Assembly (NCBI GenBank): GCA_020052095.1
Contig: JAGVPT010000096.1
Span: 8,571 to 72,570, forward strand
Direction: 5' to 3'
DNA length: 64,000 nt
Origin: Bacteroidota bacterium
GTDB lineage: Bacteria > Bacteroidota > Ignavibacteria > UBA10030 > UBA8401
In this document: piece after piece, positions 29,661-46,933 of the stretch
Layout of the letters: every line of letters begins with the position of its first letter
How positions within the stretch are numbered: position 1 is the stretch's first letter
Notes under the pieces: generated by a model
Told to the model about the DNA's origin: nothing
The model's database searches: none
What the model saw: only the letters and a program-made list of their open reading frames with translations
Translations under genes and position numbers: made by a program

Positions 29661-29684
29661 GCAATGCTCTCGCACGTTCGTGTT

Positions 29685-29853: not shown

Positions 29854-31257
29854 ATGAAAACTATTAGATTCATTTTCAGTTTTTGTTTCATGCTTATCGT
29901 TTCGATAGGCGTTTCCCAAGCTCAACAACTTGAAATTCATTTCATCAATGTTGGCTGGGGTGGCTCAATGTTCATCAAAGGACCGAATGGAACGACGTTG
30001 TTAATTGAAGCGGGTAATACCGGCAAGGGAACGGCGAAGGTCGTTCCGTATTTGAAGTCCGTCGGCATCCAGCCTGCCGATGGATTTGATTACGCAATTG
30101 CCGGGCATCAACACTCCGATCATCTCGGCGGACTGGCTGAAGTTATCAATGCCGGTTATAATGTTCGCGTGAAGAACTATTACAACGGCTCTGCATACAC
30201 AACTACCCCCGTTACAGAATGGAACAACGCCGCAGCCAAGACAACGGCAGGCGCTCCCGTAATTCTGCCGGTCGGAACGACCATTAACCTCGGTGACTCT
30301 GCAACAATCACCTGCGTTGCGAGAGATGGTAATATCATCGGCGGCGGAACGGTTTCCGTTTCAGACGAAAACGACCGCTCAATCGCGCTCTTGATTCAAT
30401 ACAAAGGGTTTGATTTCCTGTGGGGAAGCGATCTCGGAGGCGGCAGCATAGATCAATCGTGTACAGGCCGCTCAACATCTCAAGTAGATGTGGAAACTTC
30501 CGTGATTACTGCGATCTCTCCCAGCGGCGCGTCACCGTTGATTCCCGCAGGCGGAATTGATGTGCTGTTTGTGAATCATCACGGCAGCGAAAGCAGCACA
30601 AACAAAAATTGGATGAACTTGTCTGCACCGGCAGTCGCCGTGATTAGCACGGGCGATGGACAATCAAGCAATTGGTATTTGCCGCGTAAAGATGTTGTTG
30701 AAAATGTTCTGCTTGCCCAAGCGACTTCCTGTATAACGGTTCCAGCGGCGCTGGTACTCCAAACGGAAGAAGGAGCGCCTGCCGGTGCGCTGACAAGCAC
30801 GGCGGGATTTAGCGTCGGCGATATCAAGATCAGCGCCAACGGAAAGGGTTATTATGTTGTGTCAGCCGACGACGCCGTTACGCAAGGACCGAACGAAGTT
30901 AGTGCCGCAGGATTGCCGCTCACCTTTACAACAGACGACCATCTACCTGGACATACTCCTACAGCCGTTCTTGATGAATCCAAGTTACAACCCGAAGGTT
31001 TTGAGTTAGGACAGAATTTTCCCAATCCATTCAATCCGTCAACGACAATCTCGTTTGTACTTCCATTGTCAGGATACGTGAGTTTGCATATCTTCAACAC
31101 GCTTGGTGTGAGAGTCGCGACTCTTCTGGATCAACATATTGAAGCAGGTCGGTATAGTGTCAAGTGGGATGCTGGTAAATTTGCAAGCGGCGTCTATTAT
31201 TATCGTTTGCAGGCTGGATCGACCGGTAAACAGAGAAAACTTGTCTTACTTCGGTAG
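29854..31257 (+). CDS. Secreted MBL-fold (ComEC/Rec2-type) hydrolase with T9SS C-terminal domain
   Basis: GAGGAG RBS and a signal peptide. LEIHFINVGWGGSMFI, the HxHxDH motif GHQHSDHLGG, and C-terminal FPNPFNPSTTISF...GVYYYRL. Confidence 0.85.
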   Translation: MKTIRFIFSFCFMLIVSIGVSQAQQLEIHFINVGWGGSMFIKGPNGTTLLIEAGNTGKGTAKVVPYLKSVGIQPADGFDYAIAGHQHSDHLGGLAEVINAGYNVRVKNYYNGSAYTTTPVTEWNNAAAKTTAGAPVILPVGTTINLGDSATITCVARDGNIIGGGTVSVSDENDRSIALLIQYKGFDFLWGSDLGGGSIDQSCTGRSTSQVDVETSVITAISPSGASPLIPAGGIDVLFVNHHGSESSTNKNWMNLSAPAVAVISTGDGQSSNWYLPRKDVVENVLLAQATSCITVPAALVLQTEEGAPAGALTSTAGFSVGDIKISANGKGYYVVSADDAVTQGPNEVSAAGLPLTFTTDDHLPGHTPTAVLDESKLQPEGFELGQNFPNPFNPSTTISFVLPLSGYVSLHIFNTLGVRVATLLDQHIEAGRYSVKWDAGKFASGVYYYRLQAGSTGKQRKLVLLR

Positions 31258-31280
31258 GAGAATTTCCCGAATTGACACGC
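31129..31280 (+). repeat. 152-bp near-identical duplication, copy 1 (gene 3' end plus 23 bp of 3' flank)
   Basis: gatcaacatattgaagcaggtcggtatagtgtcaagtggga...cttcggtaggagaatttcccga.ttgacacgc matches 32677-32828 with about 7 mismatches. Upstream parts of the same domains are much more diverged. Confidence 0.8.
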
Positions 31281-31602
31281 ATAGGGATATTCACATTACA
31301 ATGATTTGGTATTTTTCCATTTGGAGAAATTTTCCATCACAGCGAACCAGTCTATGGCTGAAATAATGAAAACATGGTATTCATGTAAGATTACTGAAGT
31401 TACGCAAAAACTCAAAAACAGTCATGCTGAGCAAGGCGCAGAGGCTATATTTCTGTCATCCTTCGACGCATCCTGCAGAAAAACGCAGGATGACTATGGC
31501 ATTTGCGCCGCGTCGAAGCATATTTAAGCGGAAAAAACCGCCTGCGGAACATCAGTAAGATCAGTAATATCAAACGAGCAAAAGGCAAGTTGAAAGGAAT
31601 AT

Positions 31603-32805
31603 ATGAAAACGATTCAAATACTTATTGCATTTTGTCTGCTCTCCGAAATTGTTCAATCGCAGACACCAACATACAGAGCACTTTTTGACAATACAAAGAA
31701 CGAGACGGCGGGTAATGCAGACTGGATTATCGATACCGACCAACCTGTACCCTCCCCCCCACAATCGGGCATTATCTCCACGACTCCGGAAAATTATTGG
31801 CTTGGCGGCATTTCGGCCTGGGGTGTGGGTTTGGTGAAGCTCGGTTTCACCGTGCATACTTTGACGAAGACATATGGAATTACATTTGGAAATAGCAACA
31901 ATCCGTATGATCTCTCGAACTACAATCTCTTTGTGGTATGCGAACCTCAAAACCCATTCACTCCATCCGAGAAAGAAGCTGTCAAATCGTTTGTTCGTAA
32001 CGGCGGCGGGCTTTTTATGATTGCTGACCACGATGTTTCGGATCGTGATGGAGATGGATGGGATTCTCCTAAGGTCTGGAATGCATTTGGTACTGACACT
32101 CTGTTTGGGATGCATTTCCAATCCTCAAGCGAATCGAATAACAACATTTCACAGAAATCGAGTAACGTAAGCATTCTGAATGATAGCATAATGGTAGCTC
32201 GGACTGGAACGATTACCAAATTAAGCTTCTATAACGGAACAACGATGAGACTTTTTCCGCACGTGAATTCAACTGTAATTGGCCACGTGTGGATGAATGG
32301 AGCTGCACAGAGTACTTCTCAGGCTATGACCGCAACAGCCCAATATGGAAAAGGCAGAGTCGCAGCGGTGGGCGATAGTTCTCCTGCTGATGATAGTACA
32401 GGTCAATCGGGAAATAAATTATATAATGGCTGGGGCGAAGCGGGCGTATCAAATAATATTTTGCTTCTCAATATCAGTCTTTGGTTGGCTGGTGGAAATT
32501 CCACGACGGACGTGAGAGGGTTGAATACGACTGTGCGTCCCGACGATTTTGAATTGATCCAAAACTATCCAAATCCGTTTAATCCTTCGACGACGATTCC
32601 GTTTACGCTCTCATCGCCAGGACACGTGCGCTTGCTGATTTTCAACACACTTGGAGAGAGAGTAGCGACTCTTTTCGATCAACATATTGAAGCAGGTCGG
32701 TATAGTGTCAAGTGGGACGCTGGTAAATTTGCAAGCGGCGCTTATTATTATCGTTTGCAGTCTGGATCGACCGTTAAACAGAGAAAACTTGTTTTACTTC
32801 GGTAG
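31603..32805 (+). CDS. Secreted T9SS C-terminal-target protein, unknown N-terminal domain
   Basis: 400 aa with a signal peptide. FDNTKNETAGNADWIIDTD, NLFVVCEPQNPFTPSEKEAVKSFVRNGGGLFMIADH, and C-terminal NYPNPFNPSTTIPF. Confidence 0.8.
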   Translation: MKTIQILIAFCLLSEIVQSQTPTYRALFDNTKNETAGNADWIIDTDQPVPSPPQSGIISTTPENYWLGGISAWGVGLVKLGFTVHTLTKTYGITFGNSNNPYDLSNYNLFVVCEPQNPFTPSEKEAVKSFVRNGGGLFMIADHDVSDRDGDGWDSPKVWNAFGTDTLFGMHFQSSSESNNNISQKSSNVSILNDSIMVARTGTITKLSFYNGTTMRLFPHVNSTVIGHVWMNGAAQSTSQAMTATAQYGKGRVAAVGDSSPADDSTGQSGNKLYNGWGEAGVSNNILLLNISLWLAGGNSTTDVRGLNTTVRPDDFELIQNYPNPFNPSTTIPFTLSSPGHVRLLIFNTLGERVATLFDQHIEAGRYSVKWDAGKFASGAYYYRLQSGSTVKQRKLVLLR

Positions 32806-32878: not shown

Positions 32879-33628
32879 ATGTCAGTCAAAACATTTGCGA
32901 TAGTAACGATAGCCTCTCTAAGTTTTGTCTTCTCTTCCTGCATGCATGCTTTGATGGTAGGAGGAATGGGCGGTCACGGTTCTCAAGCTGAAGGTCACTC
33001 TGCGACAGAAGCAACATTGGAAAAAGAAGTGACAGTCGGAGAGTTAAAAGGCACGGCTATTTTTCCAGCCATCGAGATTGGAAAAGAGGCCGTATTTACA
33101 CTGAAGCTTTCGAACAGCAAGACCGGAGAGCCGATTCGCCGGGCGAAGGTGTACTCACATACGGAATTCGCACATTCACCCGACACTCATCAAGGGATGA
33201 ACCACATGGCAATGATGGAGGAAATGCATGACATGCACGGAGCAAAAGATACGTCCATGTCCATGCAAGGTAAAATGGATCATTCGACAATGGAAGACAC
33301 TTCGCGCGCGATGAAGAAAGAAGAAAAACAAGGCATTGAATTCCAACAAGAAGTAGAGGAATCGCCAACGCCCGGAACGTACTCGTTTTCATTGAAGCCT
33401 CATCAATCAGGCATTCATACAATTACATTTCACGTAACAGAAGTTGATGGGCAATTGCTTTCTCCCCCATTGCTCATTGAAGCAAAGAGAAGTGTCGCAA
33501 AAGAGGGTGAGCAACATACTGGCGGAATGATGGGGATGGGAAGTTCAACCACGTCCGTTCTTATCGGCGCAGCAGTCATGGGGACGATGATGGTAACAAT
33601 GTGGTTGCTGAGAGGAAGTATTTTTTAG
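32879..33628 (+). CDS. Met/His-rich periplasmic protein with C-terminal TM anchor
   Basis: Lipobox-like VFSSC and an Ig-like frame (VFTLKLSNSKTGEP, IHTITFHVTEVDG). It is interrupted by HQGMNHMAMMEEMHDMHGAKDTSMSMQGKMDHSTMED and ends in a Met-rich TM. Confidence 0.6.
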   Translation: MSVKTFAIVTIASLSFVFSSCMHALMVGGMGGHGSQAEGHSATEATLEKEVTVGELKGTAIFPAIEIGKEAVFTLKLSNSKTGEPIRRAKVYSHTEFAHSPDTHQGMNHMAMMEEMHDMHGAKDTSMSMQGKMDHSTMEDTSRAMKKEEKQGIEFQQEVEESPTPGTYSFSLKPHQSGIHTITFHVTEVDGQLLSPPLLIEAKRSVAKEGEQHTGGMMGMGSSTTSVLIGAAVMGTMMVTMWLLRGSIF

Positions 33629-33712: not shown

Positions 33713-34078
33713 ATGATAAAACAGTTTGCTTTGGTTTCAACAACTCTTCTCCTTTTTGTTGCGGGGTGTGCATCAACAACGTACACAATTCGAACTAACG
33801 AGGATTCCCCAAATGATATATTCCTGGTCTTTTCCAAACGCGCAAACGCAGAACCAGGAAACAAGTTTGTTGTCTACCGTACGCGAACAATGTCGGCTCC
33901 AAACACCAATTCAGGTGGACATCAACATGGTGGTGGACACGGTGGCGGATCTCATACGATGCGAGAAGAAATTGGAAAAGTGGAAATCATCGAAGTGCTC
34001 GGTGAGACCTACGCCAGAGTGAAAGTTCTTTCAGGAACCATAGAAAATGGTGCTCACGCACAAAAACTGGATGAGTAG
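33713..34078 (+). CDS. Small lipoprotein with His/Gly-rich loop
   Basis: Lipobox LFVAGC and GGHQHGGGHGGGSH. Confidence 0.55.
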   Translation: MIKQFALVSTTLLLFVAGCASTTYTIRTNEDSPNDIFLVFSKRANAEPGNKFVVYRTRTMSAPNTNSGGHQHGGGHGGGSHTMREEIGKVEIIEVLGETYARVKVLSGTIENGAHAQKLDE

Positions 34079-34119: not shown

Positions 34120-35073
34120 ATGAATTGCAGAACATGTGGTGTGCCAAATAATGATGATGCAAAGTTTTGCAGAGCCTGCGGTGCAGAACTTCAACAGCAA
34201 CTGGGCGGACATCATGGGAAAAGATGTCCGTCCTGCGACTTTGAAAATCCTAAGGATGCACGATTCTGTGCACGCTGCGGCGCAGGGGTACAACAGCATC
34301 ATCCTTCATCTCAACACTCTGGCAAGCCGACACAGAGAAAAAGGAAAGAAAGCGACGACGATACTAAACTTGTCCGGTGGCCACGAATTGTCGGGGTTGT
34401 GATTATTGCCGGCGCTCTTCTTTTCATCGGCACGATGTATATGTTCCCTCCACAGGAGAATAGAAAAGCGCCAGTCATTACAGAGGCAAGAAGCTCTGAC
34501 CCGGTGATGGAAATACAAGTCACAGCAATCGCCTCAAAGTTCATATGTTCCTGCGGTACATGTGGCGAGCTTCCGTTGGAAACTTGTGGATGTACTACGG
34601 CCGTGCAAGAACGTCAATTTATTCGAACTTCTTTGCAGTCAGGACAAAGCCCGGATCAAATTGTGCTTGCAGTTAATAAGGCCTTCGGCTGGATGAAGCC
34701 GCAATTTGCTGCAAATTACGATTCCACTACGCGTAGGAATGGTCAATCGTCATCGACTCCGTCAGCAAGAGTGACGGGATCGACAACACTAAAACCTCAG
34801 TCGGAAAACGAAGTCGGATTTCTGAAGTTTCCACAATCGCAATCCGGGGCAGCAAAGATGGCGACCACCTCCGATCGGGGCGAAATCTTTTTTCACTTCA
34901 AATGTCCGTGCGGTCAATGCGGTATTGATGAGTTGAAAGATTGCGGTTGTGCCCATCCCCGCGGAGCCAAGGAAGTAAAAGCGTTTGTGGATGCAAAAAT
35001 CACTGAAGGGAAATACACAGTGGCCCAAGTGATAAATGATGTCGAATTGAAATATGGCGGTAGAAAATTCTGA
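34120..35073 (+). CDS. Double zinc-ribbon - TM - two periplasmic CxCGxCG...CGC repeat protein
   Basis: N-terminus CRTCG..FCRACG and CPSCD..FCARCG, one TM (IVGVVIIAGALLFIGTMYMF), then two about 60-aa repeats (FICSCGTCGELPLETCGC... and FKCPCGQCGIDELKDCGC...). Confidence 0.7.
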   Translation: MNCRTCGVPNNDDAKFCRACGAELQQQLGGHHGKRCPSCDFENPKDARFCARCGAGVQQHHPSSQHSGKPTQRKRKESDDDTKLVRWPRIVGVVIIAGALLFIGTMYMFPPQENRKAPVITEARSSDPVMEIQVTAIASKFICSCGTCGELPLETCGCTTAVQERQFIRTSLQSGQSPDQIVLAVNKAFGWMKPQFAANYDSTTRRNGQSSSTPSARVTGSTTLKPQSENEVGFLKFPQSQSGAAKMATTSDRGEIFFHFKCPCGQCGIDELKDCGCAHPRGAKEVKAFVDAKITEGKYTVAQVINDVELKYGGRKF

Positions 35074-35133: not shown

Positions 35134-35622
35134 ATGAAAGACCTTAAGGTATTTCTGGTTGCAATGATCCTCCTAACGGCGGCCGACAATGTGCAGGCCC
35201 AGCATCACCACGGTGATCAATGGTCCTCGTCAAGGAAAATTCCGGCGATTGCTGCGGCCTTATCGCTGCAACCGCTTCCACTGGACTTAGGTAACTTCTA
35301 CGCCGGCAATTGGGAACGAGGCACCATTTACACGACGGCTGAAGTTGTGCTGTTTATCCCGGCTGTAGTGTTGATTTCACAGAATTCCAACTGGGGACAT
35401 CATCGCTACGATTCATACTATTACCCTGATGCAAACCGGAGAACGTGGACGGACGCTGAACGCACTAGGTTTTATTATCTTGCAGGCGGCTATTTTCTGG
35501 TGAAGTTGATCAGTGCGCTTGACGCCGGCTACTCAGTGGAACGGCAGAACGCCCAAGTTTCCGTTGGGTATGACAAACGAAGCCAATCGCTTGGTTTCTC
35601 CTTGGCTATTCCGATTCCCTGA
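35134..35622 (+). CDS. Hypothetical membrane protein with N-terminal QHHHG
   Basis: 162 aa. Signal peptide ending AQ-HHHGD plus hydrophobic segments. No family recognised. Confidence 0.5.
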   Translation: MKDLKVFLVAMILLTAADNVQAQHHHGDQWSSSRKIPAIAAALSLQPLPLDLGNFYAGNWERGTIYTTAEVVLFIPAVVLISQNSNWGHHRYDSYYYPDANRRTWTDAERTRFYYLAGGYFLVKLISALDAGYSVERQNAQVSVGYDKRSQSLGFSLAIPIP

Positions 35623-35739: not shown

Positions 35740-38058
35740 TTGCTGCACACTCCTACGCAGTTACTCAGGCGATTGAAAAAGGTGAAAGATTCTATCGTGG
35801 ACAGAAATCTTAAGGAGAATTTTCCACAGCCCGTTAAGTTGTTTTGGGAATCCAACTCCCAAGGGGATCACTTCGTGACCTTTGGACTGGTTCTGGTGCT
35901 TCTGATTGGGTTTACTCCTACCCTACAAGCACAGCAGAAAACGGGAATCCTCGAAGGTGCGGTATTCGACAAGAACACGAAACAGACCATCGAGTTGGTG
36001 AATGTGTTGATCGAAGGAACTGCCATGGGAACTGCCACCGATTCAGAAGGTCGTTACAACATTCAAAACATCTCTATTGGTTTCTATACAGTTCGCATAT
36101 CGATCATCGGATATAAGGAACGAAGGCTTTCAAATGTTCAAATCAAGTCCGGGAAGAACGTGCTCAATGCCGTTCTGGAAGAAATCTCGATTCAAGCAGA
36201 TGAAGTTGTTGTGATGCCAAAGCCTGAACGATACGATGCAAGCGGCATCTCGGCCCGTCTCGGGAAGGATATGGTCGCTTCAGCTACCGGCTCCGCACAG
36301 GATATCTTCTGGGTTATTCAAACGCTGCCTGGTATTGCTTCCGACGGCGATAATTCAAAACTCTACGTGCGCGGCGGAAGTCCGGACGAAAATCTTGTTC
36401 TTTTCGATGGCGCGACGATTGGAAATCCCTTTCACTTCGATATGATGGGAGGCGGATTTTATAGCATTTTCAATTCGCGATTAGTCGATAAGGTTGAATT
36501 CTACGCAGGCGGCTTCCCTGCTCGGTATGGCGACAAACTCTCATCAGTTTTGGATATCGAAAATCGCACAGCGGATTTTGAGAAGACCAAAGGTGAATTG
36601 TCGCTCAGCATGTCTGATGTAAGTGGAGTGCTTGAAGCTCCTCTGACCTTCGCGAACGGATCTGCGCTTCTTTCTGCTCGCAGAAGTTATTTCGATGCCT
36701 TCCTCAAGTATACGGATCTTGCAGGACAATATGATGTGCTTCCTTATTTCTTCGACATCAACTCGAAGCTCGATTTCAACCTCTCCCAGCAGCACAAACT
36801 TACACTCTCCGGCTTGTTTTCTCGGGAACGTATGTACGCCTACTTCGACGAAAATCCACATTACACAGGAGACTTTTCCTTTGAAAGCAGAAATGGCGTG
36901 GCGACCGCCCGACTTCGCTCCGTGTTGACCGATTTGTTCCTGTCAGATCTTATCCTCTCGTGGAGCAGTGTGAAGAGATCTTCTGTTCAGCCAGGCGGAG
37001 GTTTTGAAGAATTAACTGATCAGGTGCTAAGCGTGAAACAGGATTTCGCGACGATCCTCCCCAGTCACGAACTTCACGTAGGCGCCTGGTTTGTTTTGGA
37101 GAGACAGAATGTTCAGATCAATCTTCCCATGGAAAGTGCAATCAACTTTGACGAGCTCAAGCTTCGCGGAGACGGCAACTCGTTCAAGCCCTCTTTGTAT
37201 GTCGACGATAAATGGACCATCAGCTCGACTCTGATAGCAACTTTGGGTTTGCGGTACGATTATGTTGCGAGAAGTAAGGAGGGTGCCCTTTCACCGCGCA
37301 TCAATATTGCATACGCGTGGAACGATCACATGAGTTTGTCGGCAGATTACGGTTGGTACTATCAGTCGCCGAAAGCCTATGAGCTTGTCATTAACAACAA
37401 CTTGCGATCGAGGAAAGCTGAGAGCTACGGCATTGGAATGAAACATCAGATTGGAGATGAGATCGTTGTCAGCATCGAGGCATATAATAAAAACCTTTCC
37501 CAGCTTATCACAATTGATTCGCTTTGGAATCTTTCGAACGACGGATATGGGTACTCGCGAGGAGCCGAATTCTATATTCAGCTTAAATTGCCATCAGGGT
37601 TCTCCGGATGGCTTTCATATACATATTCGGCTTCAAAACGCAAAGAAGGAACCAATCCGGATCTTCATTATTTCGATTTTGATCGCCCTCATATGATCAG
37701 CCTGGTTGCCAATTATCGCTTTGGAGAGTACTGGCAGGCAGGCGCTCGCTTTCGGTACGGAAGTGGGAAGCCATATACCCCCGTTGCGTCGGCATTCTAT
37801 AATCCTGCCGCAGGACATTGGTTCCCAATTCCGGGAGAACATAACTCAGGCCGCTTCCCAGACTACAGCCGGCTCGATATTCGCGTGACGCGGCACTTTC
37901 AATTTGAAACGTTCGACCTAGATGTTTATCTCGAACTCCTGAATTTATATAACCGAAAGAATCCAATTCATTTTATGTGGGATGAAACTTATTCGAGCAA
38001 AGACCCCGTCACGGTTTTTCCATTCCTTCCAGTGTTGGGAGTGAGCGCACGATTTTGA
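35740..38058 (+). CDS. TonB-dependent outer-membrane receptor with CarboxypepD_reg-like N-domain
   Basis: GILEGAVFDKNTKQ...GRYNIQNISIGFYTV, a plug (LPGIASDG..LYVRGGSPDENLVLFDG) and a beta-barrel ending in ...GVSARF. The true start is probably an internal TTG/GTG (35839 or 35875) just before the signal peptide. Confidence 0.85.
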   Translation: MLHTPTQLLRRLKKVKDSIVDRNLKENFPQPVKLFWESNSQGDHFVTFGLVLVLLIGFTPTLQAQQKTGILEGAVFDKNTKQTIELVNVLIEGTAMGTATDSEGRYNIQNISIGFYTVRISIIGYKERRLSNVQIKSGKNVLNAVLEEISIQADEVVVMPKPERYDASGISARLGKDMVASATGSAQDIFWVIQTLPGIASDGDNSKLYVRGGSPDENLVLFDGATIGNPFHFDMMGGGFYSIFNSRLVDKVEFYAGGFPARYGDKLSSVLDIENRTADFEKTKGELSLSMSDVSGVLEAPLTFANGSALLSARRSYFDAFLKYTDLAGQYDVLPYFFDINSKLDFNLSQQHKLTLSGLFSRERMYAYFDENPHYTGDFSFESRNGVATARLRSVLTDLFLSDLILSWSSVKRSSVQPGGGFEELTDQVLSVKQDFATILPSHELHVGAWFVLERQNVQINLPMESAINFDELKLRGDGNSFKPSLYVDDKWTISSTLIATLGLRYDYVARSKEGALSPRINIAYAWNDHMSLSADYGWYYQSPKAYELVINNNLRSRKAESYGIGMKHQIGDEIVVSIEAYNKNLSQLITIDSLWNLSNDGYGYSRGAEFYIQLKLPSGFSGWLSYTYSASKRKEGTNPDLHYFDFDRPHMISLVANYRFGEYWQAGARFRYGSGKPYTPVASAFYNPAAGHWFPIPGEHNSGRFPDYSRLDIRVTRHFQFETFDLDVYLELLNLYNRKNPIHFMWDETYSSKDPVTVFPFLPVLGVSARF

Positions 38059-38099
38059 ATAAAATGTTACAATGAAAAACACTTTAAGGAGATATTACT

Positions 38100-38771
38100 A
38101 TGGCAAACTATTGTTCACACTGTGGAAAGCCCATGGTGCAAAATGCGAACTATTGCACACATTGCGGGACAACAATCAAGGGAGCGGAACTGAAACAGCG
38201 GCTTCAACACAAACGAGAAAAAGTGGTAGGAACCGTGGGTCCGCAAAAGAAGAATTGGATTCGAACGGGGATTATTCTGGGCGTGCTCAGCTTGTTTGGC
38301 GTTTGGATTTATGCAAACTTGCCCAAAAGGGGCAACCCGATAATCGCATCTCAGCCCGTTGTCGCTGTTGCCGCTACTTACTCGCAAGCACCACAGCAAA
38401 TGGTTGATATTTCTGCAAGAACGGAAAACGGAAAGATCGTTATCTCGTTGGAGGTTGTGCAACAACGAAAATTCGTCGCATTCTCTTCCAATAATCCACA
38501 AAACACAGTGCCATTGCTTGCGTATGTCTCCGGTGAGGGAAAAATTATTACGGCAGTCAGCATGTGTGAGCCCTGCAACTCGCAACGTTTTCATATCCAA
38601 GAGGATAAGCTCGTTTGTAATGCGTGCGGCTCGACATGGGAATTGAATGACTTAGAAGCTGTCAGCGGCAGCTGCGCAAAATTTCCTCCTGATGCTGTTC
38701 CGAACGTCACTGTGAACAACGAAATCCAGATTGATGAAAATATCGTTGCACGCTGGCGACGGAGAATTTAA
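38100..38771 (+). CDS. Zinc-ribbon - TM - DUF2318-like periplasmic Cys-motif protein (paralog 1)
   Basis: N-terminus CSHCG...YCTHCG, one TM, and a C-terminal domain AVSMCEPCNSQRFHIQEDKLVCNACGSTWELNDLEAVSGSCAKFPPD. Confidence 0.7.
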   Translation: MANYCSHCGKPMVQNANYCTHCGTTIKGAELKQRLQHKREKVVGTVGPQKKNWIRTGIILGVLSLFGVWIYANLPKRGNPIIASQPVVAVAATYSQAPQQMVDISARTENGKIVISLEVVQQRKFVAFSSNNPQNTVPLLAYVSGEGKIITAVSMCEPCNSQRFHIQEDKLVCNACGSTWELNDLEAVSGSCAKFPPDAVPNVTVNNEIQIDENIVARWRRRI

Positions 38772-38831
38772 CGGGTTGCAGAAATCGCAAATCTTAAATT
38801 GAAAATCGCAAATCGTCAATCGACAATCTCT

Positions 38832-39992
38832 ATGAAGCTCTACAATATTTCGCTTAATAATCTTTACCGCCGGAGAATGAAGGTTGTATTTCTTGTTCTC
38901 GGACTTGTGATCGGCGTAAGCACTGTTGTAACGCTCATGACAGTGTCTGATGCCATGAATGCGGATATCGCGAAAAAGCTGGATGAATTTGGCGCGAACA
39001 TCCTTATCGTCCCCAAGTCAGACGATCTTTCCTTGAGTTACGGTGGGATGTCCATTTCCGGCGTATCCTTTGATGTACGCCAGTTGCGGGAAGAGGATGT
39101 GCAGAAGATCAAATCAATCAAGAATCGCAACAACATCAGTATCGTTGCACCAAAATTGTTGAACGTGACAAAGATACAGCGGCGCGATGTTTTTGTTGTA
39201 GGTGTGGATTTCAAGCAAGAATTCCGGATGAAAAAGTGGTGGTCAATTGCAGGGAAAAAACCTCAGCATGGCGATGAGGCTCTCCTCGGCGCTGAAGCAA
39301 AAGACAAACTTGGCATTGGCGTGAATCAAACCTTCGAGGTTGAGGGAAAGAAGTTCACTGTTGCGGGAATTCTTGCGCCGACAGGTTCACAAGATGACGG
39401 CATCGTATTTATTGATATGAAAGAGGCCCAACGAATTTTCGGAAAGCCAGACCGCTTGAGCATGATTGAAGTTGCTGCTCTTTGCTACGACTGCCCGATT
39501 GAAGAAATTGTCCGCCAGATATCCGAACAACTCCCCGGCGCGAAGGTTACGGCGATTCGTCAAGCTATAGAATCGAAAATGGAAGCGATGCACAGGTTTC
39601 AACATTTTTCAGTTGGAATTTCTTTAGTCGTGCTATTTATTGGAGCATTAATTGTTTTCACAACAATGACTGCCGCTGTGAACGAACGAACACGAGAGAT
39701 CGGAATTTTTCGATCTATCGGATTTCGGCAGACGCATATTATGATGATCATTCTTACTGAAGCGCTCCTCACAAGTTTCTTAGCAGGGCTCGTCGGATAT
39801 TTTCTCGGATTCTCTGTCTCACGGTTTGTTGCTCCCCTCGTTATTATGAATGGCGGACCTGAAATGCCATTCAATCATCAATTGTTAATCTTCTCGATTG
39901 CGCTTGCGGTGTTACTTGGCATGGCATCCAGCATCTACCCTGCCTACAAAGCATCGAGACTTGACCCAATTGTTGCATTGAAATCGTTGTAG
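38832..39992 (+). CDS. MacB/FtsX-type ABC transporter permease
   Basis: TM1, a large periplasmic domain, then three C-terminal TMs with the FtsX pattern (REIGIFRSIGFRQTHIMMIIL; ends AYKASRLDPIVALKSL). Confidence 0.85.
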   Translation: MKLYNISLNNLYRRRMKVVFLVLGLVIGVSTVVTLMTVSDAMNADIAKKLDEFGANILIVPKSDDLSLSYGGMSISGVSFDVRQLREEDVQKIKSIKNRNNISIVAPKLLNVTKIQRRDVFVVGVDFKQEFRMKKWWSIAGKKPQHGDEALLGAEAKDKLGIGVNQTFEVEGKKFTVAGILAPTGSQDDGIVFIDMKEAQRIFGKPDRLSMIEVAALCYDCPIEEIVRQISEQLPGAKVTAIRQAIESKMEAMHRFQHFSVGISLVVLFIGALIVFTTMTAAVNERTREIGIFRSIGFRQTHIMMIILTEALLTSFLAGLVGYFLGFSVSRFVAPLVIMNGGPEMPFNHQLLIFSIALAVLLGMASSIYPAYKASRLDPIVALKSL

Positions 39993-40016
39993 GAGTTGAA
40001 CGAAGCGAGAAAGCGT

Positions 40017-40721
40017 ATGAGCAATCATCAGAATGAAATCAAGAACACAGCAATGAGTTTCTTGGAAGTACAAAACGTATCAAAGATTTATCAGGCAGGT
40101 CGCGAACATGTCAGCGCGGTGAATGGAATAACATCGCAAGTAATGCAAGGTGAGTTCATCTCTGTTACGGGTCCTTCCGGCTCAGGCAAAAGCACGCTTT
40201 TATCAATTCTCGGCGGATTGAATCATCCCACTGAAGGAAAACTTCTTGTCGATGGAATAGACGTGTATGAACTCTCAGTCGAACAGCGCGCAGACTTTCG
40301 ACGAGAATACTTGGGTTTTGTTTTCCAATCGTTTCAGTTAATTCCTTATCTGACTGTGGCTGAAAACGTGTTGCTTCCCCTTACAGTGAGTTCTCACTCG
40401 AACAGCGAACAAAAGGAAATGGCTCTTAGCATTTTGGAAAAGGTCGGACTTACGCATAAAACGCGTCGCCTTCCTGACGAACTCAGCGGAGGTGAACAAC
40501 AGCGCGTCGCCATTGCCCGTGCATTGATTAATCAACCGCCTATTATTCTCGCCGATGAGCCAACCGGCAATCTCGATTCGGCAACAAGCGAAGAGATCAT
40601 GAAACTCTTTCAGGCTCTGAACAGCGAAGGAATTACGATGATTATGGTAACTCATAATCCAGACAACATTCGGTACGCCCGGCGCTGCATCTCTTTGCGC
40701 GACGGAAAGCTCGTAAACTAA
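40017..40721 (+). CDS. ABC transporter ATP-binding protein (MacB/LolD-type)
   Basis: Walker A GPSGSGKST, Q-loop, signature LSGGEQQRVAIARAL and Walker B IILADEPTGNLD. The start is uncertain (TTG 39996, ATG 40017 or ATG 40053). Confidence 0.9.
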   Translation: MSNHQNEIKNTAMSFLEVQNVSKIYQAGREHVSAVNGITSQVMQGEFISVTGPSGSGKSTLLSILGGLNHPTEGKLLVDGIDVYELSVEQRADFRREYLGFVFQSFQLIPYLTVAENVLLPLTVSSHSNSEQKEMALSILEKVGLTHKTRRLPDELSGGEQQRVAIARALINQPPIILADEPTGNLDSATSEEIMKLFQALNSEGITMIMVTHNPDNIRYARRCISLRDGKLVN

Positions 40722-40756: not shown

Positions 40757-41743
40757 GTGCGATACATTTACCGCCGTGATAATCCTTTCGAAGGTTTACT
40801 CAAGACAGCGATATATTTTCTTTTCTGCTTCATACTTTCACAACGTTGTTTCGCCTTTCAATATGAGTTTATCAGTGCCAAGAAGCCGAAATCGGACGCC
40901 TTCTTTTCATCACGTAAGTTTCAAACTAGTTTTGGAGATACTGTCGTGGTCCAAACCGAATCCCGCGGTTCGCTTCTCTGGAGCAACATGTTTGTGAATA
41001 TTCCTCGGGACTGGGTTCGCTGGTCACAAATCTCGTTTCGACACGATAAGATTGGTATGTGGGTGGCTGTTACAAGCTCAACGGCATTGCTGATCGCGAC
41101 AGATGCAAAAACCTACGAGCCTTCAAAGAAATTCTATGACAGCGATCCGGCAAGGGCATTCTATAATAGACTCTTCGCCGAACTATGAGACGGTAGGACT
41201 CAATTTAGTCTGGCGGCTGCGTTCGCACTTTATGGATGGGTCGCGGACGACGCAAAAGCCGTCAAAGTTGCAACTCAAATAGTCGAAACTGTCCTTGCGT
41301 CAGGAACCGTTATTCAAGTCTTGAAGCATTCGACGGGTAGAGAAAGCCCCTTTGTGAGGGGCTCGCCGACAGGAACGTGGAAATTCTTCGCGAGTCCCAT
41401 CGAATACCACGGAAGGATTCCTGCGTACGATGCCTGTCCTTCAGGTCATGTGGCTACGTCGCTCGCAACAGTCATTGTCCTTGCAGAGAACTATCCGGAC
41501 GTGAAATGGATACGGCCTCTCGGCCACACGCTCGTGGCAGGTGTTGCAGTCGGAATGGCCAACAATGGCATTCACTGGTACAGCGATTATCCGATTTCCA
41601 TCGCGCTCGGATATTATTCTGGAATGATTGCTGCCCATCCGGATGGATTTGCTCTTGGCGATGATGACCAGACTGTGCAGATGAGTTTAGTCCCCATTGT
41701 TCGACCAGAAGGAGCAGGTCTTTCATTGATGATGACCTTCTGA
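40757..41743 (+). pseudogene. PAP2-family phosphatase interrupted by a single in-frame TGA (41186-41188)
   Basis: ORFs 40757..41188 and 41321..41743 are in the same frame, and the 132 nt between them has no other stop. Read-through gives a contiguous membrane protein carrying KHSTGRESP, PSGH and HWYSD PAP2 motifs. Confidence 0.7.
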
Positions 41744-41959
41744 GTTATTATTGAGAAGTGTGATTTGCAAATGAACTAACAACGAATCAAGAAAAAGGTT
41801 CGAGGTAACGCTCGCACGGATGCTTTAATGCTCGCCATACTGGCCCCGCGATTTTTCTTTGCCACTGTAAGATTCTTCTTGCATTACGCCGTTATGTTTT
41901 ATATTTTCTACAAGTTATCATCAATTAACAAACGTTCGATTTACTTCAAAAGGAGCCTT

Positions 41960-42214
41960 ATGAGAAAATTCATCGCGCTGTCTGTCTTCATTTTTCTAGT
42001 AAGTAGTGTCGCAATACCTCAAGCGGCCACAAGCACGGGGGAGAAAAAAGAAACAAAATCGGCAACTCACAAGCATCACGACAAGAAAGACGGATGCTGC
42101 TGTATGAAGAATATGAGCGAGGAAAAAAAGGGGGATGGCTGCACGATGGATTCAAAAAAGGAGTCTGAGAAAGAACCAAAAGAGGAATCAAAAAAGGAAA
42201 CCGAAAAGAAATAA
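41960..42214 (+). CDS. Small secreted Lys/Glu-rich protein with CCCM motif
   Basis: AAGGAG RBS and a signal peptide. THKHHDKKDGCCCMKNM...GDGCTMD, with a strong terminator right after the gene. Confidence 0.5.
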   Translation: MRKFIALSVFIFLVSSVAIPQAATSTGEKKETKSATHKHHDKKDGCCCMKNMSEEKKGDGCTMDSKKESEKEPKEESKKETEKK

Positions 42215-42230: not shown

Positions 42231-42268
42231 AATAAACCTGTGATGCTTTCCATTGTCACAGGTTTATT
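42231..42268 (+). terminator. Rho-independent terminator
   Basis: Perfect 13-bp stem aataaacctgtga / tcacaggtttatt with a 12-nt loop, followed by a T-rich tract. Confidence 0.6.
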
Positions 42269-42310: not shown

Positions 42311-42967
42311 ATGAGATGCTCAAATTGCGGCAATGAGCTGAGGAAGGATGTTCTGTTTTGTCCACACTGCGGCACGAAGATTTTTGATAAAAGTGCTCTC
42401 CCTTCATCATCGCGTGTGCCGGGGAAGAAAAGCATGGGCACACGAGCAAAGATCGTATATTCAGCCATCGCCGCTGCCTTGCTGATCGGTATGGGGGTTG
42501 TCTTCGTGCGGAGTCTTCCGGGCGGCGACCATCCCGTTATTCAGAACCAACCGACAATTCCGCAAGCAGAAAATTATGACGGCGTGAAATTGACGATGAC
42601 GCCAATTCCATCAAAAGTGGAAAACGGTTTCATTATTATTTCCCTTTCACAAGTCATCGAAAAGAAAATGGTCTCGTTCACGTATGATGGCAAGACAACT
42701 AAAGTTGACCTGATGGCGTACATCAATCCGCAAGGCAAGCTCGTGACCTCAATTGCAATGTGCGAGCCGTGTAATTCAAAAAGCTTCCACAGTGAATCGC
42801 AAGATCTGGTGTGCGACAATTGCGGCACACGCTGGAATTTCACGACTCTCGAGGGAATTAGCGGATCGTGCCAAAAATATCCGCCAGATCCGGTTCCGAG
42901 CGAGATTGCGGGAGAAGAAGTGCGTATCAGCAAGAAGCTCGTCGAAGGATGGAAATTGAGAATATGA
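42311..42967 (+). CDS. Zinc-ribbon - TM - DUF2318-like periplasmic Cys-motif protein (paralog 2)
   Basis: N-terminus CSNCG...FCPHCG, one TM, and SIAMCEPCNSKSFHSESQDLVCDNCGTRWNFTTLEGISGSCQKYPPD. The C-terminal ...GWKLRI parallels ...ARWRRRI in paralog 1. Confidence 0.7.
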   Translation: MRCSNCGNELRKDVLFCPHCGTKIFDKSALPSSSRVPGKKSMGTRAKIVYSAIAAALLIGMGVVFVRSLPGGDHPVIQNQPTIPQAENYDGVKLTMTPIPSKVENGFIIISLSQVIEKKMVSFTYDGKTTKVDLMAYINPQGKLVTSIAMCEPCNSKSFHSESQDLVCDNCGTRWNFTTLEGISGSCQKYPPDPVPSEIAGEEVRISKKLVEGWKLRI

Positions 42968-43320
42968 GGAAAACGTTCCTTTTTATTTGCGCCGCGTTCA
43001 TTCTTTCGTTGCCCGGCTGCAGGAGATCGACGACCGGGAATACAGCGTCAACAACAAGCACCGCAGCCATTGCTGCAATCAACCTGCCAACACTGAAATG
43101 CAATACCTGTGTCGCAACGGTAAAGAGAACTGTTGCGTCGATGGATGGAGTTGAAAGCGCGGAAGTAGATTTGAAGGCAAAAAACGTAACAGTGCACTAT
43201 TTGGCGGCAAAACTGGATATAGGAAGGATCGAAACCGGAATAAGCAGCGCAGGATACGACGCAAACGACGTAAGGCGGGATTCAACCGCGTACAGGAACT
43301 TGCCGGAGTGCTGCAAGTAA
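42964..43320 (+). CDS. HMA (heavy-metal-associated) domain lipoprotein
   Basis: ATGA overlap with the upstream stop and lipobox LSLPGC. HMA fold with LKCNTCVATVKRTVASMDGVESAEVDL and a C-terminal PECCK. Confidence 0.75.
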   Translation: MRKTFLFICAAFILSLPGCRRSTTGNTASTTSTAAIAAINLPTLKCNTCVATVKRTVASMDGVESAEVDLKAKNVTVHYLAAKLDIGRIETGISSAGYDANDVRRDSTAYRNLPECCK

Positions 43321-43332: not shown

Positions 43333-45645
43333 CTACGCCTCCTTCGTCCTGGCTTCAATGCCCCTTCGCACAATCGTAATCAGGAATCCCCCCACTAAAA
43401 TCATTGTCCCCATCCACACCAGGTTAATAAATGGTTTCACGCTAGCTTCGACGATGAGGGTCTCGTTTTTTTTCAGTTGGCCTTCGGCCAGCGGTGCACT
43501 GGCCCCGAGAGTGATCGAAGACTTGCCTCTGTCGCCCCGTCCCATGTTCATCCCCTTTATCGTGAACGCAATCTGTGTGTTCGGCAGCGATGCAGGAATA
43601 TAGCTGACTTTGCCTTTTGCATTGTGCATTTCCGGTGCGAGGCTCACCGTTTTGCCTCCGCGTGTCACCTCAAGAGTCGCGGTGACAATATTTCCTTTTT
43701 CCGGGGAGGTGGAAAAACTATAGCCAAGGTACTTTATCGTCATATCCTGGAACTTCTGTACCTCGTCCTTTTCGACGGTCAACTCTTGTTCGTTCTTCGC
43801 ATCCGGAGTTTCGAGGGAGAGAGGTGAAACGTAAAAATCTTTCGTCATCAGGTTGATGATATCGGGATTCCGCATCAGCCCTTCATTGTCCTTGTTGTAA
43901 AACATCACGGGCGCTACGACAAATCTCTGGTCCCCCCTCTCGACTTCCACGTCGAATGCAAATCGTCCGCGCTCGATCGGATGGTATCCGACATATCGCA
44001 TTTTATATCCCATAGCCTCGACTTGTTTTCCCTGCTCCAGCGATACCGTCTCCTTATCGTCGTACTTTGCCGATGCGACAAAACCTAGGAACATGAGCGA
44101 GAGGCCGATATGCGCAATTGCTCCGCCTGCCATTTTTGGATTGCCTTTGAATATTCTATAACCGACCATGGAGTTTGTGAAAAGCGCAAACGAAGAGGCG
44201 AAAATAAAAGCCAGCATCGTGGCATGATGCGCTCCGAAAAGATAGCTCGCGATCGTAAAGAACAGCGCTAAGAGGAGTGGGACTCGAAGACTCCTGAGAA
44301 GCGTGTCGGAGTCGGAATTTTTCCACCACAAAAGCTGTCCGACGCCGGCGAGAAGCGCGATGAATATTCCGAGCGGGAGAGTCGTTGTCACGTAGTATGA
44401 CATATCAACTGCAGATACTTTTCCCTTGAGGATGCCCGTAATGATCGGTGAAGACGTCCCAATGACGATGAACAGCGCCGAAAACACGATCGCTGACGCG
44501 CCAAGGAACAGCGCAAATTCACGAGACATCAAACTATGCTCAACCGGTACCTTTGGCATCTCCTTCATTCGCGCAAAAAAGAGACCGAACCCGATTCCTG
44601 CAAAAAGAAAGAGGCCTGCCAGTAACAGCCAGTACACCCACATGCCCGGCTCTACGAATGAATGAACGGAGGTGTCGCCGAGCACCCCGCTGCGCGTGAG
44701 AAATGTAGAATACAACACCATCACGAAGCAGAAGATGCTCAGGACAAAGTTTGTTTTGATGAAACTTCCACTGCGCCGTTGGGAAAGCATCGTATGAATC
44801 GAGGCAACGCAGACGAGCCACGGTACGAGCGAAGAATTTTCAACGGGATCCCATCCCCAATACCCACCCCATCCGAGCGTCTCATACGCCCAAAATCCCC
44901 CCATGATTATCCCCGTTCCAAGGATCATTGCGCCAAAAACCGTCCACGGAGTTGACACACGAATCCAACTGACGTAGTCGCGCTTCAAAAGACCGGCAAC
45001 GGCATACGCAAATGGCACAGACATCGACGTGAATCCTATAAACAATACTTGCGGATGAATCACCATCCAATAATTCTGGAGAAGTGGATTCAATCCTTTT
45101 CCTTCATTCGGATATTGCGCCCAAATTCCTTTTGCCCGGTCGAGCCACACAAAATTTGTGAGAGTCAGAGGTACGGGACCTGTGTGAACAAGGTCTGCTG
45201 GAAACAAATCCCAAATGTAGGCGAACGGAGTTTTTACAGCCAGCATGAGGAGAAGAAAGGAGAAAATCAGCGAGTAGATCGCCATCAACTCCGATTCGTA
45301 CCCCTTCTTTGCGGAATACGCCATCAGTGCAACGCCGACAATGCTGGTGTAGAATGCCCATAGCGCGAAGCTTCCCTCCTGACCGGCGTAAAAAGTCGAA
45401 AACAGCAGCGGGTCCGGCAAATCGGTGGAACTGTAATTCCAGACATACGAATACTGAAATTGATGCGTCATGATTAAGTAGATGAGAAGAGCAGCCGCGC
45501 ACATCATTCCAACGACGGCGGTGTGGTAGGCATACCGCGCGAAGAGCAAGAGGCGTGGCGAGTACTTTCTGTGATTCAGGTAATAGGCAAACGACGAGGT
45601 GAGTGCGGCGGCAAACGCAACTCGTATGATAATGCTTCCGATCAT
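43333..45645 (-). CDS. ccmF: Cytochrome c-type biogenesis heme lyase CcmF (long form)
   Basis: 770 aa polytopic protein with the WWD motif WGGYWGWDPVENSSLVPWL and a C-terminal periplasmic extension plus a final TM. Confidence 0.9.
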   Translation of the reverse strand: MIGSIIIRVAFAAALTSSFAYYLNHRKYSPRLLLFARYAYHTAVVGMMCAAALLIYLIMTHQFQYSYVWNYSSTDLPDPLLFSTFYAGQEGSFALWAFYTSIVGVALMAYSAKKGYESELMAIYSLIFSFLLLMLAVKTPFAYIWDLFPADLVHTGPVPLTLTNFVWLDRAKGIWAQYPNEGKGLNPLLQNYWMVIHPQVLFIGFTSMSVPFAYAVAGLLKRDYVSWIRVSTPWTVFGAMILGTGIIMGGFWAYETLGWGGYWGWDPVENSSLVPWLVCVASIHTMLSQRRSGSFIKTNFVLSIFCFVMVLYSTFLTRSGVLGDTSVHSFVEPGMWVYWLLLAGLFLFAGIGFGLFFARMKEMPKVPVEHSLMSREFALFLGASAIVFSALFIVIGTSSPIITGILKGKVSAVDMSYYVTTTLPLGIFIALLAGVGQLLWWKNSDSDTLLRSLRVPLLLALFFTIASYLFGAHHATMLAFIFASSFALFTNSMVGYRIFKGNPKMAGGAIAHIGLSLMFLGFVASAKYDDKETVSLEQGKQVEAMGYKMRYVGYHPIERGRFAFDVEVERGDQRFVVAPVMFYNKDNEGLMRNPDIINLMTKDFYVSPLSLETPDAKNEQELTVEKDEVQKFQDMTIKYLGYSFSTSPEKGNIVTATLEVTRGGKTVSLAPEMHNAKGKVSYIPASLPNTQIAFTIKGMNMGRGDRGKSSITLGASAPLAEGQLKKNETLIVEASVKPFINLVWMGTMILVGGFLITIVRRGIEARTKEA

Positions 45646-45673
45646 TCTCTCCCGGCTTTCTCTGCGAAGCGTC

Positions 45674-46063
45674 TTACAGCGTTTTCTTCATTGCTGTTGC
45701 GTCGCCTTCATATTTTGAAGGACATTTCGTTAGAAGCTCATTGGCGTGAAAATATCCGTCCTTGTATCTTCCTTTCGCAACGACACTTGTGGCAAGCTCA
45801 AAATTATTCGGCTTGGCTCCATCAAGCACAACCTTCACTTCGCGTTTGTTGTCATCGACCATATAAAAAATGAATTGTCCTGCCTTGGCGTCGAATTGGG
45901 TTTCCTTTTCCTTCACCCACGCCCCCTTCACTTGGACCTTCTTGCTTGTCTTTTCTGCTTTGGCGAAGTCGGTGTATTCCACATTGCTGTCCATAAAGGA
46001 GACAGCACCAAAAACGAAAAACGCGACAATAACCACGACCGCAACGATAATTTTTACCTTCAT
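45674..46063 (-). CDS. ccmE: Heme chaperone CcmE, CxxxY variant
   Basis: 129 aa. N-terminal TM and an OB-fold. The C-terminal LLTKCPSKYEG aligns with the canonical VLAKHDENYTP (His to Cys114, Tyr118 kept). Confidence 0.85.
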   Translation of the reverse strand: MKVKIIVAVVVIVAFFVFGAVSFMDSNVEYTDFAKAEKTSKKVQVKGAWVKEKETQFDAKAGQFIFYMVDDNKREVKVVLDGAKPNNFELATSVVAKGRYKDGYFHANELLTKCPSKYEGDATAMKKTL

Positions 46064-46076
46064 ACCATCGTTCTCC

Positions 46077-46208
46077 TTATTTCTTCAGGTTTTCTTCAAG
46101 CTTGGCAATTCTCCGGTCTAGTCTAAACAGGTACGCAATAAATCCAAACCAAATGATAAGGACGATGCTTAGTACTATATATAGTTGATGTTGTGCAAAA
46201 AATTCCAC
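46077..46208 (-). CDS. ccmD: CcmD-family small membrane protein (not in ORF track, 43 aa)
   Basis: Hand translation: (GTG)EFFAQHQLYIVLSIVLIIWFGFIAYLFRLDRRIAKLEENLKK*. An AGGAG RBS lies 8 nt upstream and overlaps the ccmC stop. Its own stop overlaps the ccmE RBS. Confidence 0.55.
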   Translation of the reverse strand: MEFFAQHQLYIVLSIVLIIWFGFIAYLFRLDRRIAKLEENLKK

Positions 46209-46219
46209 GGTGATGACTC

Positions 46220-46930: not shown

Positions 46931-46933
46931 TGT

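Follow-up and report, generated by a model that had tools for sequence, protein, structure and literature searches.

In a 64,000-nucleotide stretch of contig JAGVPT010000096.1 from a Bacteroidota bacterium (GCA_020052095.1; this whole stretch is referred to as the window), we analysed four consecutive genes at 35740-40721 together with their surroundings. A sequence-only reading had proposed that these genes encode an envelope-spanning metal module consisting of a TonB-dependent receptor (TBDR), a bitopic DUF2318-like protein and a MacB-type ATP-binding cassette (ABC) transporter. Our analysis identifies the functional unit as a four-gene inner-membrane and periplasmic module, composed of a CcmH-like protein (34120), the zinc-ribbon/DUF2318 protein (38100), the permease (38832) and the ATPase (40017), with the TBDR and a 162-residue protein as optional inserts. 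The explanation we favour, at a probability of roughly one in three, is that this module forms an ATP-driven device in the periplasm that deals with Cu(I)-thiolates and with the redox state of thiols, thereby protecting cytochrome c maturation. We favour it because a MacB-type motor and two cysteine-rich, membrane-anchored partners are found together in a copper-gene setting with linkage to ccm genes.

All four open reading frames (ORFs) at 35740-40721 lie on the forward strand with intergenic gaps of 41-120 nt, and Pfam searches and the ORF translations bear out the family that the sequence-only reading had assigned to each, with PF10080, FtsX and MacB_PCD all matched. The TBDR (35740-38058) contains CarbopepD_reg_2, Plug and TonB barrel domains (E = 8.5e-27), and its true start is probably GTG 35875 or TTG 35838. 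After a gap of 41 nt it is followed by the gene for the 223-residue DUF2318 protein (38100-38771; Zn_Ribbon_1 and PF10080), whose ATG is preceded at 8 nt by the Shine-Dalgarno sequence AAGGAG. The MacB-type permease of the FtsX family (38799-39992, likely starting at ATG 38832) scores 81 bits against FtsX (PF02687) and 76 bits against MacB_PCD (PF12704). Hydropathy places its four transmembrane (TM) segments at residues 29-47, 270-288, 314-332 and 362-380, leaving a periplasmic domain of about 220 residues, and its nearest solved structures are, in order, 5xu1_M (a MacB-like transporter of S. pneumoniae), MacB, YtrF and LolC. The permease has its own ATPase of the LolD/MacB/FtsE type (39996-40721, likely starting at ATG 40017; ABC_tran, 123 bits), in whose translation the Walker A (GPSGSGKST), signature (LSGGEQQR), Walker B (ILADEPT) and H-loop (VTHN) motifs are intact. 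The best NCBIfam matches of the ATPase are the LolD, FtsE and MacB nucleotide-binding domains, all under their equivalog cut-offs, and neither the DUF2318 protein nor the CcmH-like protein nor any accessory protein has a specific NCBIfam model.

The suggested likeness of the cysteine domain to DUF2318 proved to be strong. PF10080 (FtrD-like, formerly DUF2318) covers residues 120-221 of the 38100-38771 product at 72.8 bits, far over the gathering cut-off of 26.3 (E = 2.7e-20). The bitopic zinc-ribbon architecture holds as well, with Zn_Ribbon_1 at residues 4-24 and a single TM segment at 56-74 by hydropathy; because six Lys/Arg residues precede this segment and two follow it, the ribbon is predicted to be cytoplasmic and the cysteine domain periplasmic. 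The cysteines of the domain form the motif C156-x2-C159-x13-C173-x2-C176-x15-C192, all five being invariant in 21 sequences, and the full set of invariant residues is C156, E157, P158, C159, H165, C173, C176, W180 and C192. This motif exactly matches the CxxC-x13-CxxC-x14/15-C pattern published for Campylobacter Cj1660/FetA (PMC6083913). Judged by sequence, the two segments C-E-P-C-N and C-N-x-C-G resemble the metal knuckles of rubredoxin or of zinc ribbons. A search of the DUF2318 family profile against PDB sequences gave no real match, the PhnA zinc ribbon appearing weakly at E = 0.047.

The family to which this protein belongs is large. Close homologs of the protein, from Ignavibacteria, Calditrichota and Bacteroidota metagenome-assembled genomes (MAGs), fall into more than 117 clusters that with few exceptions combine a zinc ribbon with PF10080; NCBI labels them 'DUF2318 domain-containing' or 'Fe-S-containing protein'. 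A domain-profile search returned 1220 clusters at 90% identity and at least 563 representatives at 50% identity (E ≤ 0.001), and the best 150 of these representatives are mostly single-TM proteins of 190-230 residues. Searching the PLSDB plasmids with the DUF2318 protein by tblastn gave no match. A role of the ribbon as a zinc-binding anti-sigma factor (ZAS) was considered and rejected, as it has no HxxxCxxC motif, most family members are ribbon-less, and we saw no gene for a sigma factor in the window.

The AlphaFold2 model of the DUF2318 protein has a pLDDT of 87 overall and above 90 across the ectodomain. In a Foldseek search of the PDB, its best matches were the Rieske [2Fe-2S] ferredoxins 2i7f_A (TM-score 0.74, rmsd 2.9 Å over 105 columns), 7buh, 4nb8_E and 1fqt, with further matches to Rieske domains of dioxygenases and bc1 complexes, and the ectodomain models as a Rieske fold with all-cysteine ligands. 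Such a fold raises the alternative that the module serves periplasmic electron transfer, with an Fe-S cluster in DUF2318 passing electrons from the membrane to periplasmic thiol oxidoreductases or metal ions, or the reverse, as has been proposed for FetA of the FetMP system. Four cysteines in two knuckles with Rieske-like spacing would suit this role, as would the Pfam and NCBI names 'FtrD-like' and 'Fe-S-containing protein'; a redox relay through FetA, FetBCD and FetEF has been proposed (PMC10783030), and Liu et al. (2018) remarked that the DUF2318 cysteine spacing resembles Fe-S motifs (PMC6083913). However, the all-cysteine site offers no His ligands, and when the DUF2318 profile was aligned by hhalign with a genuine Rieske iron-sulfur protein, found in one of the loci compared below (L021), no similarity emerged (probability 0.1), so that the Rieske link holds at the level of fold only. 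The genuine Rieske protein carries the twin-arginine motif SRRSFL directly ahead of its TM segment, whereas the DUF2318 proteins have no such motif and instead show a conserved KRxKVLG about 17 residues before theirs. A Sec-type topology of this kind, with no twin-arginine motif, favours assembly of the site within the periplasm, as a metal site or a disulfide, over a pre-assembled Fe-S cluster. Export of such a cluster is also unlikely because the FetA domain is a loop of a polytopic protein, and we know of no Fe-S assembly system in the periplasm. Our literature search found no experimental report of a cluster in any DUF2318/FtrD-like member, and a MacB-type ABC transporter has no obvious part in electron transfer. 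We consider this alternative possible but unlikely.

The core partner that the sequence-only reading overlooked is encoded on the same strand at 34120-35073. Its product has a cytoplasmic double zinc ribbon (DZR, 42 bits), one TM segment at residues 90-108 and two tandem periplasmic domains, each with the pattern C-x-C-G-x-C-x7-C-x-C (C143/145/148/156/158 and C262/264/267/275/277). All ten cysteines are invariant in 25 sequences, including the CxxC pairs C145-G-T-C148 and C264-G-Q-C267. The protein scores 22.7 bits against CcmH (PF03918), just under the cut-off of 25, and most of its 146 homolog clusters do carry PF03918, the JGI name being CcmH/NrfF. Its AlphaFold2 model has a pLDDT of 72 overall and about 85-90 in the two periplasmic domains, and the top two Foldseek matches in the PDB are CcmH of P. 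aeruginosa (2hl7; TM-score 0.70, rmsd 2.6) and of E. coli (2kw0; TM-score 0.67). At the level of predicted structure, the CcmH fold of these domains is thereby confirmed, and the protein models as a thiol oxidoreductase fold with extra cysteines. Reduction of apocytochrome c thiols is a putative activity, to which genomic association with genes for CcmF and tetratricopeptide repeat (TPR) proteins points.

To place the module in a wider context, we retrieved 80 genome loci (designated by L numbers) and mapped the window proteins onto them, taking only eligible loci as denominators. An FtsX gene lies downstream of the 38100 ortholog in 60/60 loci and an ABC ATPase gene in 55/55, and a CcmH-like zinc-ribbon gene lies upstream of it in 60/61; in 35/40 a CusA gene is found no more than 10 kb upstream of the module. 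DUF2318, FtsX and ABC make up the universal core, which in the zinc-ribbon clades is joined almost universally by the CcmH-like protein as a fourth member. Core synteny extends over Ignavibacteriota, Calditrichota, Kryptonia and other MAGs in at least six arrangements, and this variation argues for function rather than inherited order. In Calditrichota, CcmF is encoded directly upstream of the CcmH-like gene, while in 14 loci from Melioribacter-like genomes the ABC gene is followed by a TPR (CcmI/NrfG-like) gene and then CcmF. The recurrent neighbours of the module are HMBD proteins, Met-rich proteins, CopA and DUF2231.

By the same count, the TBDR adjoins the DUF2318 gene in only six of 53 eligible loci (nine of all 80), and it is an accessory insert within the operon rather than a part of the core. 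Thus, of the four parts initially proposed, the DUF2318 protein, the permease and the ATPase form a conserved neighbourhood, and the place given to the TBDR belongs to the CcmH-like protein. This bears directly on the original model, in which TBDR, DUF2318 protein and MacB-type ABC transporter act as an envelope-spanning uptake-to-export relay for a thiophilic metal. In the window the TBDR does sit inside the operon, 41 nt ahead of the DUF2318 gene, and it occupies the same position in nine loci of diverged lineages at 44-77% identity. Yet the relay depends on an accessory gene that is absent from about 85-90% of orthologous loci. Comparison of the TBDR with solved TBDRs gave weak matches only, the mature protein has no cysteine, and the residues invariant among ten TBDR orthologs include none. 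The copper site of OprC is made of Cys-Met-His-Met, and an OprC/NosA-type site was therefore ruled out for this receptor. In addition, TBDRs are importers whose coupling to MacB-type machines is not known, and no membrane fusion protein (MFP)/HlyD adaptor or TolC/OEP gene lies beside the module, the only ones being those of CusCBA some 18 kb upstream. A relay of this kind is very unlikely.

The second optional insert, at 35134-35622 on the forward strand, encodes a 162-residue exported or membrane protein with an HHHGD stretch behind its signal peptide and without a Pfam or NCBIfam match. The position of its homologs varies: other loci have them elsewhere, but five (L037, L050, L063, L065 and L067) have one between the genes for DUF2318 and FtsX. 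An LpoB-like lipoprotein gene may also be inserted at this point. The window has its own LpoB/CsgG-like lipoprotein gene at 24516-25223; this gene is kept in the island (also L025 6188-6772, L042, L061 and L080), lies between the DUF2318 and FtsX genes in some genomes, and is found directly upstream of CcmF in Calditrichota.

More distant loci show how far the cassette can vary. One of them (L081) has a bare DUF2318-FtsX-ABC trio without copper or ccm genes. In two others (L082 and L085) the order is a multi-zinc-ribbon CcmH-like protein, a zinc-ribbon SurA_N protein, the zinc-ribbon DUF2318 protein, FtsX and ABC, and the CcmH-like protein has a single CxCGxCG…CxC domain. The SurA_N protein (L085 6979-7911; L082 9207-9974) is itself anchored behind a zinc ribbon, with a chaperone-like periplasmic domain and the C-terminal sequence SCCTSGCGGG. 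Genes near L085 include one for a YHS-HMA P-type ATPase, and a resistance-nodulation-division (RND) system (OEP/CzcB/ACR_tran) is encoded in the vicinity of the related locus L083.

In the window, the module stands in a copper/silver-type island extending from about 13.2 kb to 43.3 kb, as the sequence-only reading had recognised. The island includes the CusC-CusB-CusA RND copper/silver efflux genes (13804-19891, forward strand; OEP, HlyD_D23 with HMBD for CusB, and ACR_tran at 783 bits), DUF2231, a HAMP histidine kinase (22805-24349), Met/His-rich exported proteins and an HMA-domain lipoprotein. That reading had missed, besides the CcmH-like gene, a second zinc-ribbon/TM/DUF2318 paralog at 42311-42967 and the adjacent ccm operon. 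The paralog, also on the forward strand, is 37% identical to the first (PF10080, 81.9 bits), and its stop overlaps the start of the HMA lipoprotein gene (42964-43320, forward strand) as ATGA at 42964-42967, an arrangement in the sequence that suggests translational coupling. The lipoprotein is periplasmic and CopZ-like (C-N-T-C; HMA, 51.9 bits; LPGC lipobox). Orthologs of paralog 2 lie between CusCBA and an HMA gene, facing ccmF (L048, L066 and L069-L079); the HMA gene follows in 9/12 loci, and the paralog-2 orthologs face ccmF-E-C-B-A in 8/9. About a dozen genomes keep paralog 2 and the HMA gene as a pair between CusCBA and ccmF. Upstream of paralog 2, a small exported His/Lys-rich protein with a CCC motif is encoded at 41828-42214 on the forward strand, with homologs in the same place in L074 and L076. 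Between these two genes, at 42231-42268, lies a hairpin with a 15-bp stem (AATAAACCTGTGATG...), the sole strong stem-loop in the region, which could be a terminator or a regulatory element.

The ccm operon itself (ccmA, ccmB, ccmC, ccmE and ccmF of System I; 43333-48648, reverse strand; Pfam CcmF_C/Cytochrom_C_asm, CcmE, CcmB and ABC_tran) contains no ccmG or ccmH. The 34120-35073 gene is the only CcmH-like gene in the 64 kb, and for this reason its product may also serve as the housekeeping CcmH. From here it is a short step to a different explanation, in which the protein is the organism's real CcmH, the DUF2318-FtsX/ABC set is a lineage-specific component of the CcmF/H heme-lyase or thioreduction branch of cytochrome c maturation, for example replacing CcmG/DsbD or handling heme like the MacB-like HrtBA, and the copper genes are mere neighbours. 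In its favour are the gaps in the ccm operon, the predicted CcmH fold, and the linkage to ccm genes elsewhere, with CcmF upstream in Calditrichota and TPR and CcmF downstream in the 14 loci named above. On the other hand, the trio also occurs without a nearby ccm gene (L081, L082 and L085), and the 34120 domains differ from canonical CcmH in being duplicated, zinc-ribbon anchored and provided with three extra invariant cysteines each. Fet-type homologs, moreover, serve iron uptake in organisms with ordinary Ccm or Ccs systems. A purely accessory role in maturation is doubtful, if still credible.

Since the island contains a HAMP histidine kinase, which is also encoded in L019 and L073, and an N-terminal cytoplasmic zinc ribbon of one type is common to three of its proteins, the module might also be seen as a sensing device, in which ABC/FtsX and the bitopic partners report periplasmic metal or thiol stress to a kinase, by Bce-like flux sensing, or through the ribbons. 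But the kinase gene lies about 10 kb off and most loci do not have it, there is no adjacent gene for a response regulator or sigma factor, and the zinc ribbon is present in only about 22 of the best 150 DUF2318 representatives. We regard sensing as very improbable.

The Cu(I)-thiolate device that we prefer would work as follows. On the Rieske-fold scaffold of DUF2318, the two knuckles together with C192, H165 and E157 would form a thiolate metal site, which would bind a thiophilic ion in the periplasm, most likely Cu(I). Metal and/or disulfides would be exchanged between this site and the CcmH-like domains, in each of which a CxxC is set inside a five-cysteine cluster. Rather than transporting a substrate across the inner membrane, the MacB-type ABC transporter would convert ATP hydrolysis into a periplasmic conformational change (mechanotransmission), forcing loading or release, such as a hand-off of Cu(I) to the HMA protein, Met-rich carriers or CusCBA. 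As an outcome, CxxC thiols in the periplasm, and in particular those that take part in cytochrome c maturation, would be kept copper-free and correctly redox-poised. This scheme builds on the domain identities, the topology seen in sequence, the predicted folds, the gene order, and the copper and ccm context, in which the ccm linkage comes in three separate arrangements (CcmF upstream in Calditrichota, TPR and CcmF downstream in Melioribacter-like genomes, and paralog 2 abutting ccmFECBA). From these we infer the identity of the metal, physical contact among the four proteins, the direction of transfer and the link to cytochrome c protection.

Several points weigh against the scheme. The metal specificity given to DUF2318 is drawn from context, and the Cus linkage, coming largely from related genomes of the Fibrobacterota-Chlorobiota-Bacteroidota (FCB) group, could in part be inherited synteny. 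Neither the bare trio of L081 nor the L082 clade stands beside copper genes, so that the machine may be a more general one that has copper as one of its uses, specific to a lineage. Homologs in Campylobacter, Salmonella and Yersinia give iron, not copper, phenotypes (PMC10783030, PMC7285068). Finally, co-transcription of the module genes is putative, suggested by their tight same-strand spacing and kept gene order; a scan for sigma-70 promoters and terminators, which is unsuited to FCB-group promoters, returned hits at chance level only.

Other features of the island were noted in passing. Five exported proteins without family assignment, at 20489-21235, 25367-26014, 32879-33628, 33713-34078 and 41828-42214 (the last being the CCC protein described above), are dense in Met and His (MxxM, HxxM, HGGGH) or carry CCC. 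Many Ignavibacteriota loci keep such exported proteins in the stretch from CusA to the module; their probable role is to carry or buffer Cu(I) in the periplasm. A P-II-like domain of about 90-110 residues recurs in copper islands, standing alone after CusA or, in many loci, just after the ABC gene (PF00543 at L084 4766-5107); the copy in the window (21593-22627), which precedes the HAMP kinase, forms one protein with a long coiled region that is membrane-associated. Mid-island, 27342-32805 encodes three proteins with a type IX secretion system (T9SS) tail (Por_Secre_tail), bearing Ig-like/ASH repeats, a metallo-beta-lactamase fold and a DUF4350-like domain, respectively. Relatives of the first are present in several other loci, and these tails place the organism in the FCB group. 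After the ABC gene, 40757-41743 holds short ORFs of 143 and 140 residues, the second carrying no more of a PAP2 phosphatase domain than its C-terminal part. They look like what is left of a PAP2 gene that has split or decayed, and no such remnant was found there in any of the other loci. Scanning the window for Rfam families and tRNAs gave no hits, and its flanks outside the island are housekeeping genes.

If the link to copper and cytochrome c holds, the module would represent a new class of periplasmic copper defence. Taken together, the fold, the Ccm-type companion and the copper/ccm context narrow the hypotheses to mechanotransmission-driven thiol or thiolate-metal chemistry. A more general proposal, speculative and in our view rather improbable, is that DUF2318, FtsX/ABC and a Ccm-type oxidoreductase constitute an ATP-powered machine for periplasmic 'metal-thiolate editing', whose motor would open the Rieske-fold all-cysteine site and thereby load Cu(I) or another soft metal onto CxxC proteins or strip it from them. 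Were this true, FCB-group bacteria would use it to shield the thiols of CcmH and apocytochrome c from copper, and the engine of Campylobacter, Yersinia and Salmonella would service the P19 copper site, explaining why FetABCD is needed in FetMP uptake. The simpler bitopic proteins described here, together with cultured hosts such as Melioribacter sp. (L038), Stygiobacter electus (L041) and Rosettibacter primus (L053), offer material for experiments.

The closest known counterpart is the C. jejuni FetA-FetBCD-FetEF system (cj1660-1665), equivalent to FlsDABCT of Salmonella/E. coli and Flp of Yersinia, and encoded downstream of FetMP (Ftr1/P19) (PMC10783030). The sequence-only reading had already drawn this parallel, and the literature upholds it: several pathogens need the DUF2318-FtsX-ABC set for P19/Ftr1 iron uptake, and its biochemical role is still unresolved (PMC10783030, PMC6083913). 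Our comparison was made by published motif, architecture and gene order. The systems have in common the CxxC-x13-CxxC-x14/15-C DUF2318 domain, predicted to be periplasmic, the gene order DUF2318, FtsX-family permease and ABC ATPase, and a Ccm-type periplasmic thiol oxidoreductase partner, CcmH-like in fold here and DsbE/CcmG-like in the case of FetE and FetF (PMC10783030). Copper chemistry is a further link, through the Cu-dependent P19 and the YHS domain that is fused to DUF2318 in FetA (PMC10783030). The differences are equally clear. FetA is an 8-TM protein with YHS, whereas the window protein has one TM segment, a zinc ribbon and no YHS match; Fet has two FtsX permease genes and the window module one; and FetE/FetF are thioredoxin-fold proteins, where the module has no thioredoxin-family gene and a CcmH-fold protein instead. 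Fet lies in a Fur-regulated iron-uptake operon, the module among CusCBA, HMA and ccm genes. No FTR1 or P19 family match was found by Pfam in the window, where most, not all, of the larger ORFs were scanned, and FetM/FetP are absent from the recurrent neighbours in the 80 loci and from the Pfam-annotated L081-L085. As no Ftr1/P19 genes were found nearby in these scans, the module is best described as a FetMP-independent, copper-island variant of the Fet sub-module. It is not a member of the Fet system, since it lacks FetM/FetP adjacency, the polytopic YHS protein, the second permease and the thioredoxin partners. DUF2318 genes have been stated to map 'almost always' to FetMP-type clusters (PMC6083913). 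The large bitopic family contradicts this, and shows that the DUF2318-FtsX-ABC cassette also exists as a free-standing module, in one large lineage embedded in copper-efflux and cytochrome-c-maturation loci rather than in iron-uptake loci.

The motor places the module beside the type VII ABC systems MacB, LolCDE and FtsEX. In these, ATP-driven motion is passed to periplasmic domains and no substrate is carried across the inner membrane. Like them, the module has an FtsX fold of four TM segments, the first two separated by a large periplasmic domain, a LolD/FtsE/MacB-like ATPase and membrane-anchored periplasmic partners; its own partners, however, are cysteine-rich and zinc-ribbon-anchored, and its NCBIfam scores are far below equivalog cut-offs. 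With Rieske proteins the DUF2318 protein shares the predicted fold and, as in the bc1 iron-sulfur protein, an N-terminal TM anchor with a periplasmic head, but CxH/CxxH is replaced by CxxC/CxxC with a fifth invariant cysteine and the invariant H165 and E157. The 34120 protein resembles CcmH/NrfF of System I in its predicted three-helix fold, in a CxxC placed in the equivalent loop and in frequent adjacency to CcmF and TPR genes. It differs in its two tandem domains of five invariant cysteines each and its N-terminal double zinc ribbon, and also in that its gene is always encoded with DUF2318-FtsX-ABC. The likeness to ScsABCD of Salmonella, whose Cu(I)-binding CxxC thiol oxidoreductases protect thiols and link copper with periplasmic redox stress (PMC10907172), is conceptual, a precedent for the favoured device with no homology shown; Scs has thioredoxin folds and no ABC motor. 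The module is not a new kind of system, and its proteins are already in the databases as uncharacterised DUF2318 or zinc-ribbon proteins. It does bring a simpler architecture, a defined partner, a fold assignment and a copper/cytochrome-c context, and with these the role of FetABCD-like genes becomes directly testable.

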